In this document: positions 6,922 to 60,179 of the stretch, in pieces
How positions within the stretch are numbered: the stretch's first letter is position 1
Layout of the letters: each line of letters starts with the position of its first letter
NCBI GenBank assembly: GCA_951406725.2
Contig: OX597829.1
Span: 14,508,001-14,572,000, forward strand
Direction: 5' to 3'
Source: Octopus vulgaris
Lineage: Eukaryota
DNA length: 64,000 nt
The notes under the pieces: model-generated
Databases searched by the model: none
Told to the model about the DNA's origin: nothing
What the model saw: the letters and a program-made list of their open reading frames with translations, nothing else
Made by a program: the position numbers and the translations under genes

Positions 6922-6963
<42 letters not shown>

Positions 6964-6964
6964 G

Positions 6965-7640
6965 TTAAGGTATGTAGAAAAATACAACATGGACAAGAAC
7001 GTATAACTCTTAGAAGACGACACAATAAACACGGACAGGACATTCGAAACCCTCAGTCTTCAGTCAAGAACCGGATCATCGTAGTAATTTCGGCTGATTA
7101 ATCTTGAGATTACTAGATCACGGCCAGCCCTCCAAGAAAAACCAAGCAACAAGCATTAGAAAAACTAAGCTGGAAGCGTAGATTTCCTGGAAGAAGGATC
7201 GAATGCATACGAACACCAGGACAGCAAAAGGGACAGATATAAAAAAACAAAAAACAATAATGGAATACAGAAACATGAAATACAGAAGCATTAACGGTGA
7301 AAACAACAGTGTCTTACGACTGATAACAAGCAAACAAATTTTTTCTCTGGCGCAATGGAAAAAGCCTTTATAGTGGCGGACGAAAACAGCGATGTTAACA
7401 AGACAAGGGTCAGAAGCTGAAAGGCAGATTTCGGCCAACAGTCACGTGACAGAGAAGAGGGAAAAGAAAAGAAAGGGAAGCAAAGGAAGAGAGAGAGAGA
7501 GGGAGAGAGAGAGAGGAGGGACAAACGCAACAAAGAGAGAGAAGAGAGAGAAAGAAGGAATCAGAGAGGAGAAGGGATGGGTGTCGAAGAATGACCTGTG
7601 AGTGCAGAGCGAGACAAAGAAATAGGAGGGTAGTGGAAGA
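6965..7640 (-). mobile_element. Non-coding retroelement 3' end (PLE-like) carrying a permuted hammerhead
   Basis: Unique-looking segment between (TA)n tracts; on the minus strand a pyrimidine-rich tract precedes the ribozyme fold. PLE assignment is inference, no ORF present. Confidence 0.5.
7041..7205 (-). ncRNA. Non-circularly permuted hammerhead ribozyme fold (copy A)
   Basis: Stem II GGCTG/CAGCC then GAA; stem III TAGTAAT/ATTACTA; C17 at 7108; stem I TCAAGA/TCTTGA then CTGAAGA; extra stems CCG-GATC/GATC-CGG and CATTCGA/TCGAATG. Confidence 0.8.
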
Positions 7641-7778
7641 CTAGACCAAAGAATCAGAGGAAAGAGAAGAGAAAAAGAGGATGAGTAGAGAGAAAAGAGA
7701 GAGAGAGGGGGACAGATCAAGTAAAAATGAGAGAGAGAGAGAGACAAACAGAGAGTCGTACCAATTATTAAGAATATA

Positions 7779-14206: not shown

Positions 14207-14552
14207 ATGTGTGTGTATGAGTATACATACATATATGTATATATATATATATATATATCTATATATATATATATACATGCACATATATATATATGTGTGT
14301 GTGTGTATGTATATATACATATATATACATATATATATAAATATATATATACATACATATATGTATGTATACTCATACACACACATACATATACGTATGC
14401 ATATATATATAGATGCATATATATACATATGTATATATATGTATGTGTATATGTATGAATATATATGTGTGTGTATATATATATGTATATGTATGTATAT
14501 ATATATGTATATGTATATATATGCATATATGTATACATATATGTATATACAC

Positions 14553-14629
<77 letters not shown>

Positions 14630-14634
<5 letters not shown>

Positions 14635-15340
14635 AATGAAAAATATGCATATATATAAACATATATGTACGTACCTACCTCTACATGTACATATACACGC
14701 ATATATGTGTACAGGACACCAAAAAGACGTCGAACACATAGAGAGACGAAAAACATAGACACAAACCAAGGAACAAGACAGGCAAAAAAAGGAGAGATAC
14801 AGGACAATAAGCACAACGAAAAATCCCCTTCTTCAGTCGCTAAAGTTTCATCTACTAAACGTTTCGAAGGATAAAAGCGAGACGTATACTTCGAATGAAA
14901 AATTCCTTCCTGCGAAAAGCAAATCAATTAAAATTCTGAGATCTTTTCGCAGAGGGGTAAAAAAAAGCAAGACGGTAACGACAGTACAAACATATAAACA
15001 GTAAAAAATATATATATAAACAGTGGAAAAATAAATATATAACAGTGAGAGACAGGACAAGGAGAACAAGATAAGAAGGGCTGTTAACGCCAGACGAAAA
15101 AAGTATTGCAAACGCTGGATTATAGTGGACGACGAGAGAGGAAGATGTCGACCAGTGGCCTTAGAAGGCGGGCGAGAAAGGACAGGATAGCAGTTACGAC
15201 GGAAGTACCGTCGCAGATGGACGACGGGAATGGGGGAGGAGGAGCAAGAGGAAGAGAGAGAAGAAGGGGAATGGTGCGAGGAGACCATGAAGAACAGTGA
15301 GGGGGAGAGAGATATATATATAAATATATTTATACTTATA
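14630..15340 (-). mobile_element. Non-coding retroelement 3' end (PLE-like) carrying a permuted hammerhead
   Basis: Same layout as 6965-7640: pyrimidine tract, ribozyme fold, TGTCCTGT motif, then (TA)n. Confidence 0.5.
14825..14957 (-). ncRNA. Non-circularly permuted hammerhead ribozyme fold (copy B)
   Basis: CCCCT/AGGGG; 10-bp hairpin CTGCGAAAAG/CTTTTCGCAG; stem II GAAGGA/TCCTTC-GAA; stem III ACGT/ACGT; GUC site (C at 14881); stem I TCGCT/AGCGA-CTGAAGA; extra TTTCAT/ATGAAA. Confidence 0.85.
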
Positions 15341-54933: not shown

Positions 54934-56109
54934 ACGGGAAGCTTTATGAAAATAGACAAAAGACGAAGGCAGGTGGAAAACAAACAAACAATTGTATTAG
55001 TATGGCGCTCAGGAAATATAAATAAAACAAGTCTTTAACGTTTCGAGCCTACGCTCTTCAACAGAAAGATACACAGAGAGAAAAAAAACACAGAAAGGAG
55101 AGAAAAAAATGCGTGCAGTAACTAACGAATCAACATGGCGATCTGATTTCGGCCAGAAGTCAAAGATCAAACATGAGACGCGAGAGCGAAATAAGGGGAG
55201 ATAATAGGGTTGATAATAGGGTTGAATGACCACCTATTAGTGCGTAGGAGGGGTCTGGACGTGTGTATGTATAGGGTTGGTGTATGTATTAGTATGTATT
55301 AGTATGTATAAGGGTGTGTGTGTGTGTGTATGTATGAGAGAGTATTAGTGCGTAGGATAGGTCTGGACAGGCGTATGTGTGGGGTTGGTGTAAGTATTAG
55401 TATGTATTAGTACGTATTAGTATGTATAAGTGTGTGTGTGTGTGTGTATGAGAGAGTATAAGTGCGTATGAGGGGTCTGGACGTGTGTATGTATAGGGTT
55501 GGTGTATGTATTAGTATGTATTAGTATGTATTAGTACGTTTTAGTATGTATTAGTTGGTGTATGTATTAGTATGGCACATCATATATGATGTGATGTGTA
55601 AAGTCGTGTGGTGTAGTGAGGAGAAGAGGGGGAGGGGAGGAGATGGGGGAGAAGGGGAGGGGAAGAAGAGGGGGGAGAGGGGGAAGAGGAGAGGAGAGGA
55701 GGAGGAAGGGGAGGAGTAAGGGGAGGAGGAGGGGGAGGAGGAAAAGAGGGGGAGGGGGAGAGAATGGGAGGGGGGAGCAGAGGGAAGGGGAAGAGGGAAG
55801 GAGGGAGGGAGAAAGAGGGAAGAAGGGAAGGGGAGTAGGGGTGAAAGGATGAAGGACTGAAGAGAAGTAGGGGTCGGGGGGAAGGATAGGTGAGGAGGGG
55901 GAGAGGGGTTAGATGAGGAGGGGGAGAGTTGAGACCAAATGGCGTATAAGAGCGAAGAGAGAAGATTAATTCCTGTTCACGGCGCAAACGGGAATCCGGA
56001 TGGCCTCTGTGTAAGGACAAACCGAACACAGATAGGTGTTGCAAGGAGTGACCGGTGGATCGGAAATGGCGTGAGACCGGTGTGTCGTTCGCAAGGTGGA
56101 TGTCACGAA

Positions 56110-56110
<1 letters not shown>
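54934..56110 (-). mobile_element. 5'-truncated Penelope-like element: GIY-YIG end, pyrimidine tract, 110-bp tandem repeats, pseudo-LTR with hammerhead
   Basis: 56110-55928 reads [31 protein letters not shown]...RLRREQELIFSLRSYTPFGLN; three tandem units from 55235, 55343, 55457; both ends in microsatellites. Confidence 0.88.
55032..55069 (-). ncRNA. Minimal type I hammerhead with A6U core variant
   Basis: TCTTT-CTGTTGA-A-GAGC(GTAG)GCTC-GAA-ACGT-T-AAAGA. Confidence 0.72.
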
Positions 56111-58048: not shown

Positions 58049-58171
58049 GACCCTCTAGAAATCCAGAATTTTATTTTGGAATTTATGGGAGCAACTGTCT
58101 TCGAACATTCATATTGTCGTTGAATGCTCGAAATGAGGAATAGATAGACAGCCGACAACTGATGAAGGGTC
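58049..58171 (+). ncRNA. Non-circularly permuted hammerhead ribozyme fold (copy C)
   Basis: GACCCT/AGGGTC; hairpin; stem II GAGCA/TGCTC-GAA; stem III TTCAT/ATGAG; A17 at 58113; stem I TTGTCG/CGACAA-CTGATGA; extra CTGTCT/AGACAG. Confidence 0.85.
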
Positions 58172-58766: not shown

Positions 58767-59337
58767 GTATGTATGTATGTATGTATGTTTGTGTCTATCT
58801 ATCTATCATTTCATTTCATTAGTTTCGTCTATTTTTCAATACTTGACCTTCACCCCACTGATCCTTATTTCGTTGCCGAGTAAAGGATAGCACATTTACA
58901 CCCACATACGCATACACACATATACACATATGTATATATATGCACAAGCATTAATGTATATATAACTATGCGTGTAAATGTAGGAGTCTATATATATATA
59001 TACAGATAGGTAGATAGATATGCAACCCTATAGCCCAGGGCTAATCAGAGCTTTGTGAGTGGATTTAGTAGATGTAAAGTCAAAGAAGCCTGCCGTTTAA
59101 ACACCTGCATGTGAGTCTTTGTGCCTGCTTTTTTTCTCTACCACTCCGGAATTAGCGGTTCGGCAAAGGACACCGATAGAAGAAATACCAGATTCAAAGA
59201 ATAAGTAGAAGTGCAAATTCGTTTAAATAAAACGTCTGTATTACATGGTTGCAGTCTAGGGTGGAAGATGTCTTGCAAACAACTTGCACATGCAAGTGCT
59301 ATCAGTCAAAAATCCCGCATACCGGAGGCCGGAAGCC

Positions 59338-59443
59338 AGCAAGTGTATGGGGTCATCAGGAGAGAATGCGCGCCGTTTCGGGGCCTACTTCTCGACGGCA
59401 TCAATATGCACCGCCCCTTCACTGATATGAGGCCCCGCTTGCT
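59338..59443 (-). ncRNA. Non-circularly permuted hammerhead ribozyme fold (copy D) in LINE 3' UTR
   Basis: Stem II GGGGCCT/AGGCCCC-GAA; stem III TGCCGT/ACGGCG; GUC site (C at 59394); stem I GAGA/TCTC-CTGATGA; closing AGCAAG/CTTGCT. Confidence 0.78.
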
Positions 59444-59468
59444 AGATCAGCTGGTTATCAAATAAAGC

Positions 59469-59720
59469 TCAATATCCTTCTAGCCATCGCTCATCGTCTC
59501 TTTTGAACCAAATCCAGTGGCTAGCCTTCTCCACTGTAGTTTGGATATCGGTTATGGTGGTATTGACTTTACGATGAGTTAGGCCTAACGATAACAACAG
59601 TCGTCTCACACTGTGTCCAACGAACCCTCTACATCCGACTTCGATTGGAAAAAAAGCGTCTTCATATTCCTCGAGGTGGTTTACATAACGGTCAATCTTT
59701 CGAGCCCGAGTGGCGTCCAT
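59469..59720 (-). pseudogene. C-terminal restriction-like endonuclease fragment of a HERO-like non-LTR retrotransposon (5'-truncated)
   Basis: RKIDRY...FPIEVGCRGFVGHS.RRLL..LG...EKASHWIWFKRDDERW matches the K..KY/P.EVGCRGF/AS.W.W.KR pattern of HERO-clade elements. Confidence 0.8.
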
Positions 59721-60179
59721 ATTACCTTATTATTCGCTTACTGATATTCATCAATGGTTTTTTCTCATTGTTTTGATGCGCCATTTCTATCACTAATAAC
59801 ATGGTCAGCGTTTTTGACGACACGTGTTTGCTGTTATTGTAGGATACACATATCAAAGGTGTCACATAGTGGGACTGAACACAGAATCATATAGTTAGGT
59901 GTCAGAAATCTTATCACGCCTGCGCGTATTTTATAGCCTTTCATTAAATATATAAAGATTAGCCTGGCGTCTTAACTGAAAATTGTTATTATGAGGAAGA
60001 CGCTTTTTTTTAAACTATTTATTCTGAGAATAATTGTATCTTTCTACGCATACGACACCAACGCCAACACATATTTGTTATCAGTAACACAAGTATTGTT
60101 TGAGAAATCTGCATAGCTTACTTATTGTGGGCATACTATAGAAAGCAAATTGCAGTGCTCATCTTGTAAAAAAACATCT

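Follow-up and report, generated by a model that had tools for sequence, protein, structure and literature searches.

In the account of hammerhead permutations given by Eckert et al. (2023; PMC10085705), the core strand CUGAnGA is covalently followed by stem II, and the resulting 'block C' was assumed to be unbreakable. The described forms closest to the present locus are type-SGC (HRIMA-1 and its variants), found only in metatranscriptomes and in none of the genomes of known organisms, and type-CSG, known from two metagenome sequences; ribozymes of these types cleave in vitro (PMC10085705). Hammerheads and other ribozymes also accompany retroelements. According to the accessible parts of the respective sources, animal non-LTR retrozymes have been proposed to depend on Penelope elements (PMC7229834; bioRxiv 10.64898/2026.07.22.740005), retrozyme monomers are circularised by RtcB (PMC7229834), Penelope reverse transcriptase (RT) initiates internally and prefers AT-rich DNA (PMC11167929), and R2 carries an HDV-like ribozyme at its 5' end (PMC6765202). 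Naiads are described in the available text as lacking canonical hammerheads, some having cores that fit no descriptor, with 17 families flagged (Craig et al. 2021, PMC8557442).

The locus considered here, copy B, lies in a stretch of 64,000 nucleotides from Octopus vulgaris (hereafter the window). All conserved hammerhead nucleotides are found on the minus strand between positions 14957 and 14825, in the non-circular order S-G-C, and the elements of the core and its helices are as follows.

14953..14957, minus strand: 5' strand of P0 (CCCCT), five Watson-Crick pairs with the 3' strand
14910..14952, minus strand: hairpin with ten Watson-Crick pairs at its base (14952-14943 / 14919-14910), flush with P0 on one side and stem II on the other
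14904..14909, minus strand: 5' strand of stem II (GAAGGA, G10.1 at 14909), displaced upstream of the cleavage site, six Watson-Crick pairs
14894..14900, minus strand: 5' strand of P4, six Watson-Crick pairs and one terminal U-G pair
14876..14885, minus strand: block S, comprising a stem III strand, GUC (C17 at 14881) and a stem I strand, with the predicted cut at 14881/14880
14859..14871, minus strand: block G, comprising the 3' strand of stem II (TCCTTC, 14871-14866), GAAA (G12 at 14865) and a stem III strand
14846..14852, minus strand: 3' strand of P4
14830..14841, minus strand: half of block C, comprising a stem I strand and CUGAAGA (14836-14830; C3 at 14836, A9 at 14830)
14825..14829, minus strand: 3' strand of P0 (AGGGG), directly after A9

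The strands follow each other in the order P0a - hairpin - II5' - P4a - S - G - P4b - I5'/CUGAnGA - P0b. No linker nucleotides occur at the P0-hairpin, hairpin-stem II and A9-P0 junctions, and the linker from S to G, between the stem I strand of block S and the 3' strand of stem II, is 4 nt long. The sequence-only reading had proposed a permuted hammerhead with GUC at 14881, and every helix it described was recovered at the positions it gave on the minus strand, including the abutment of P0, a perfect 10-bp hairpin and stem II without linkers (5 + 10 + 6 Watson-Crick pairs). Stem I has five Watson-Crick pairs and stem III four, and P4 has six together with its terminal U-G. CUGAnGA, GAAA and an NUH triplet with A15.1-U16.1 are all present in B. 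The sequence shows that this strand order belongs to the SGC/CSG/GCS group by circular permutation, the break lying between A9 and G10.1 and being filled by two helices.

B and type-SGC ribozymes share the S-G-C order, a short linker from stem I to stem II, an extra helix tying the stem I and stem II regions, and all core nucleotides. They differ in that the 5' strand of stem II follows CUGAnGA in type-SGC, whereas in B it lies upstream and two helices occupy the gap. B would be expected to work like type-SGC but, as it fails the covalent link that defines that type, is not filed there. Type-CSG has the same cyclic order as B, with the 5' strand of stem II ahead of S and G, but keeps I5'-CUGAnGA attached before that strand, while in B this half has moved to the 3' end. 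The orders of types I, II and III (CGS, GSC and SCG) are also not those of B, which reads SGC and has no Rfam hammerhead match. A scan of B alone gave two chance snoRNA matches and no hammerhead; for the whole window, the 150 matches listed out of 545 were nearly all miRNA models on TA repeats, all below gathering scores, and six loci of the LINEs discussed below gave no match. The split ribozyme is invisible to type I descriptors as well as to Rfam. No description of this form was found in the open-licence PMC and bioRxiv literature searched, nor in the accessible portions of Perreault 2011 (PMC3088659), PMC6765202, the Utopia paper (PMC4640811) and the Naiad preprint.

Taken alone, copy B is ambiguous, since a weaker stem II, mismatched at 10.1/11.1, could also be built from the bases that directly follow A9. 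This raises the reading of B as an ordinary type-SGC ribozyme, with stem II built from the strand right after A9 and with the upstream strand, the hairpin and P0 either incidental or inhibitory. That strand could form 6 bp in B alone (-5.0 against -6.5 kcal/mol for the upstream strand), and P4 has a downstream alternative (-3.3 vs -3.7), but the pair at 10.1/11.1 is an A-C mismatch. The junction score of B was 19, against a best of 15 among 30 shuffles of its upstream sequence. Its single-strand minimum free energy was unremarkable (z -1.37; 23 of 200 shuffles fold equally well), and the nested minimum-free-energy fold regains P0, the hairpin, P4 and stem III, with CUGA buried in a competing hairpin.

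Further cores were sought with a descriptor scan of the window in all six block orders, followed by a looser scan. In the first, three SGC cores with a covalent stem II of 0 bp were detected, namely B, A (at 7063) and C (at 58159), and the second added D (59359); a further family, E, was found elsewhere in the genome.

7050..7197, minus strand: family A split hammerhead with a 2-nt linker after A9, in the 6958-7777 copy of an 861-nt monomer
58050..58170, plus strand: split hammerhead of family C, an older family homologous to B
59330..59445, minus strand: split hammerhead of family D, located in the 3' UTR of a remnant RLE-type LINE whose ORF end is at 59472-59726
L055:488-610, plus strand, and L114-L128: split hammerhead of family E, a second RLE LINE family (1,757 candidates)

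Across the genome, the B core pattern had 1,803 matches (902 + 901 on the two strands) against 0 + 0 for a reversed control; one looser pattern had 5,584 + 5,551 against 47 + 56, and another had 5,213 forward matches against 173. Twenty 10-kb pieces of the genome yielded a single core, of family E, so the window, with its four cores, is richer than average. The 3' UTR of family E also contains an E-box and a TATA-like motif upstream of the ribozyme. Another repeat family (L612:1500-1545 and L621:1500-1530) displays GAAA...CTGATGAAG with flanking complementary arms.

The ambiguity in B is settled by comparison across families and LINE loci, in favour of the upstream strand. Families A, D and E are unrelated in sequence, yet in each of them II3' is matched by a complementary strand upstream, which abuts a hairpin, and the hairpin in turn abuts P0. 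The strand after A9 is absent from A, D and E, and was not kept in 20 loci of B subfamilies. A junction fit was applied to 51 cores, five from the Octopus genome and 46 from metagenomes (one further core was cut off). Zero linkers at all three junctions were obtained in 42 fits, the remaining nine needing linkers, and 39 fits exceeded all 30 of their upstream shuffles while 12 did not; the automatic fit picked wrong or weak helices for C, D_L098, L151, L159, L160, L192, L214 and L223. The covalent stem II amounted to 0 bp in 46/51 fits, with one (L214) permitting a 5-bp covalent stem, and G10.1-C11.1 was supplied by the upstream strand in 47/51.

In a MAFFT alignment of 23 LINE examples, which were selected for good fit to the model and cut at the fitted P0 so that pair counts lean towards it, the split structure was 93.1% paired and 28 of its 31 pairs had changes on both sides. 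The covariation score over these 23 rows was 0.836, compared with 0.241 for shuffled alignments (0/500) and at most 0.186 when slid. The covalent rival scored 0/23 at 10.1/11.1 and 49.6% overall, which is the chance level, and this failure is independent of how the rows were selected. Stems I, II and III thus surround the core with covariation and with G10.1-C11.1 in place, as expected of a hammerhead, stem II being provided by the upstream strand. The earlier suggestion that A9 connects to position 10.1 through a helical junction and not covalently is strongly supported by the 51 fits together with the LINE alignment, and the ordinary type-SGC reading of B appears highly improbable. The same suggestion came with a recommendation of B as the best candidate for bench work, which the comparison does not support: a P0 of 5 bp, a stem III of 4 bp and an A-U-rich P4 place B at the weak end of the examples, and a misfold is predicted for it. 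The split ribozymes carried by LINEs have a P0 of 10-15 bp and a length of 110-125 nt.

Searches outside these elements for loci carrying words of the G and C blocks returned the split layout in 0 of 77 prokaryote loci and, among the matches listed, in 0 of 242 viral loci, with narrow patterns that are not proof of absence. The LINE 3' UTRs of L203, L206 and L152 keep the whole helical scaffold with TTGACAA or TTGAAGA at the CUGAnGA position, and may be decayed copies or carry a variant core.

The catalytic nucleotides were all invariant in the aligned LINE examples. The triplets in the 51 fits were GUC (21), GUA (14), GUU (14), AUC (1) and AUA (1), and none of the 37 fits in which G was allowed at position 17 had it there (no GUG). 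Avoidance of G at position 17 is a signature of hammerhead cleavage chemistry, and both observations argue against a non-cleaving, hammerhead-derived structure whose function at retroelement 3' ends would be to bind protein or recruit RT. We regard such a role as quite improbable, although a location 30-250 nt ahead of the point where RT starts, common to all the families, would suit it, and the break between A9 and G10.1 could loosen the core. Cleavage of the RNA at GUC is predicted with high confidence.

The D and E cores follow the C-terminus of an RT/RLE open reading frame. The LINE protein was aligned with 18 of 74 homologues, and 80 metagenome loci were taken, 67 of them with at least 150 nt after the ORF and 13 with less. 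An intact SGC core was found within 400 nt after the ORF in 47 of the 80. Of the 33 loci without one, which include the 13 with a short flank, 23 were read by eye, and showed 17 broken or cut-off cores and six with nothing. In viral contigs, no occurrence of the LINE protein was confirmed. The LINE clade of family D is probably HERO, as judged by C-terminal motifs. In the window, the remnant of this RLE-type LINE covers 59270-59726 on the minus strand; the variable terminal direct repeats and fixed 3' end of its young relatives are unusual for a LINE.

A young, intact LINE (L259-L270) consists of a 3,738-nt unit with one RT-RLE ORF, an open frame of 1,175 codons whose best PDB matches are R2 proteins. 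These LINEs resemble R2 in this protein, but differ in placing a hammerhead behind the ORF and in their variable terminal direct repeats. All 12 intact copies end 116-126 nt past the cut, and six of the 12 are 1.06-1.36 units long, with a terminal direct repeat of 242 to at least 1,350 nt that includes the ribozyme; the loci were chosen for full-length ORFs, which enriches long copies. The over-unit copies are dispersed singly and not arrayed, and the flanks are mostly not (TA)n. At seven metagenome loci, a short tail follows the ribozyme and leads into the N-terminal end of that ORF; at two others, the sequence opens with a duplicate of the 3' portion of the ribozyme.

The element that carries copy B has no comparable protein: no credible ORF was found in its tandem monomers. 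This mobile-element setting had gone unnoticed in the sequence-only reading. The repeat search of the window was dominated by microsatellites, and the parts of the host element are listed below.

14631..15312, minus strand: host element of B, 5'-truncated (0.82 unit), 99% identical to an 835-nt tandem non-coding monomer, comprising monomer positions 406-835 and then 1-250
14500..14630, no strand: target microsatellite, (TA)n, adjoining the fixed 3' end
15120..15128, minus strand: TATA-like motif that also occurs in the monomer of family A, located roughly 240 nt upstream of the cut

The TATA-like word is found at positions 520 and 595 of monomer A and at position 592 of monomer B, 240-265 nt upstream of the cut site; monomer A also has an E-box, and together these could form a possible internal Pol II promoter. 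The B family is very young. A 151-nt query from B had at least 40 matches in the genome at 100% identity, among 1,617 candidates, and the family was also present in four further contig sets, with some subfamily variants. One array contains six ribozymes at a spacing of 834-843 nt, with an inverted truncated piece on its 5' side. Like the animal non-LTR retrozymes, as far as the accessible parts of their descriptions go, B consists of non-coding tandem monomers with one hammerhead each in dispersed high-copy arrays; those retrozymes are defined by type I hammerheads and monomers of about 300 nt, whereas the present monomers are 835-861 nt long and not type I (PMC7229834; bioRxiv 10.64898/2026.07.22.740005).

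The ends of the B elements were surveyed in 32 segments from 30 loci, representing 26 distinct insertions. Of 31 visible 3' ends, 28 are at monomer position 257, some 257 nt beyond the cut, where (TA)n begins, with one each at 240, 258 and 262; owing to TA microhomology, the true junction lies somewhere in 250-257. All 24 visible 5' ends, from distinct insertions, differ, and about 16 of the 26 insertions exceed one unit. In family A, 21 of 22 3' ends are at monomer position 150. Fixed 3' ends with variable 5' ends and over-unit copies imply that copying is initiated at one constant internal point and proceeds across the cut. In 72 B-type copies, found with a search pattern that counts only near-exact ones, the junction spanning this site was exact, and the cut site is intact in all genomic copies.

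These end structures point with fair probability to a circular RNA template. The main rival is a set of uncleaved multimers: the ribozyme would be real and the template not circular, tandems arising from uncleaved read-through multimers or from RT jumps between linear monomers, and cleavage serving to trim or regulate the RNA. Uncleaved oligomers have been proposed for Penelope elements in the accessible part of PMC6765202, over-unit copies can arise from such multimers, and an intact cut site in all genomic copies would also be explained by an uncleaved template. A ribozyme with full covariation across diverse LINEs would nonetheless be expected to cut often, and the single LINE copies of 1.06-1.36 units are dispersed and form no arrays. 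RT template jumps tend toward imprecise junctions, whereas the 72 B-type junctions are exact. We therefore consider the non-circular template rather doubtful, and retain the circular template as the working model.

The insertions of B show what is expected of Penelope-mobilised elements: a fixed internal 3' end, variable 5' ends, partial tandems, an inverted truncated copy and a microsatellite target. L031 (3' half) and L267:1-4614 also contain inverted duplications, large and perfect, that have (TA)n at their centre or lie at a truncated 5' end; these are either real Penelope-style inversions or assembly fold-backs. In the available text on Naiads, (TA)n targets, partial tandems and inverted truncated copies are likewise reported (PMC8557442); unlike Naiads, B has no ORF. 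Naiad sequences were compared by eye, using 36 windows at published sequence ends in the accessible material of that study (PMC8557442). The split layout, with P0, hairpin, upstream stem II strand, P4 and stems I and III, was recognised at the 3' ends of Naiad_Amil, EuTe, 2_Movir, Obim and Ovul; the ends of Naiad_Aacu and Anas are near-identical to that of Naiad_Amil and have the same layout, and Plae fits it as far as its end is visible. P0 has only three Watson-Crick pairs in the two octopus consensuses, and in 2_Movir it has one mismatch, at the junction. The ends of the nematode Naiad-1_Nbra and Naiad-2_Nbra read as covalent type-CSG, with 5-bp stems I and II and GUC, and are a possible evolutionary link to the split form. 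Most other ends examined, including the bivalve and hemichordate ends, were without such a motif over roughly the final 420 characters of the published sequence.

The motif of the octopus Naiad ends had 432 matches in the Octopus genome against 0 for the control, in copies that end in (TA)n. No recognisable Naiad ORF was found within 1.5 kb of 15 of these Naiad-like remnants, and the Naiad link for this reason rests on the published consensus. Cephalopod Naiads are described as long inactive in the accessible text of PMC8557442.

B and the Naiad ends share the ribozyme fold and the target. No shared sequence proves a link to a Penelope or a LINE helper: the monomers of A and B could not be aligned with those pLTRs, or UTRs of LINEs and Penelope elements, that were compared. 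A young and abundant family of Penelope elements with a C-terminal EN ends at CA|TAT, as do A, B and C. At L139:1330-1370 a 5'-truncated copy of a B subfamily is joined, without any intervening microsatellite, straight to the end and tail of a Penelope element, possibly through a template switch. From these sequence features, B was probably mobilised by a (TA)n-targeting Penelope-like element, and mobilisation by an RLE LINE seems unlikely. In the abundant Penelope family L590-L609, with many frames of 791 codons, a degenerate hammerhead-like motif with a core other than CUGAnGA lies about 70 nt before the end of the element, which is followed by (TA)n, often with a tail of 25-30 nt. The window also contains a Penelope-like remnant (54935-56110, minus strand) with a pyrimidine-rich UTR, ending in (TA)n, whose C-terminus we take from its motif to be GIY-YIG (Pfam gave no match). 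A minimal type I-like hammerhead variant lies near 55030-55065, inside this remnant.

Together, these comparisons indicate with good confidence that B is a predicted self-cleaving hammerhead of new connectivity, in a non-autonomous, retrozyme-like tandem retroelement. Stem II stacks on the G12.A9 core in hammerheads generally, and would do so here as well; P0 would stack on the hairpin, forming a linker-free four-way junction with the stem II stack, and P4 would serve as the tie between stems I and II. A transcript across two tandem units would be cut at both ribozymes. Since the cut is spanned by P0, II, P4 and III, which total 22 bp in B, the two ends of the unit RNA could re-pair and be held for ligation, which may proceed unaided or through RtcB. 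A retrotransposon RT would then prime at a (TA)n nick, begin at a constant internal position some 250 nt beyond the cut, pass through the sealed junction and run round the circle for a variable distance. Such rolling reverse transcription would explain the fixed 3' ends, the exact junctions and the over-unit lengths.

The hammerhead connectivity that emerges from the analysis is real, widespread and, it appears, previously undescribed, and it is associated with two groups of retrotransposons. The layout contradicts the explicit premise on which the count of six permutations of the hammerhead rests, and would imply that the backbone link between A9 and G10.1 can be replaced by a helical junction, a new place for attaching domains in engineered ribozymes. 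It also places non-circularly permuted hammerheads, so far known from metatranscriptomes and metagenomes, in animal chromosomes at more than 10,000 sites, and offers a possible answer to the published puzzle of Naiad hammerhead cores that match no descriptor. On balance, we consider slightly more likely than not the view that the split hammerhead is a seventh natural connectivity, its catalytic strand being interrupted by a four-way junction, that it is standard in a whole clade of R2-like LINEs and in many Naiads, and that it enables these autonomous LINEs to retrotranspose via covalently closed circular RNA, the junction clamping the cut ends for ligation. This view predicts that an R2-related LINE lineage would copy circular RNA.
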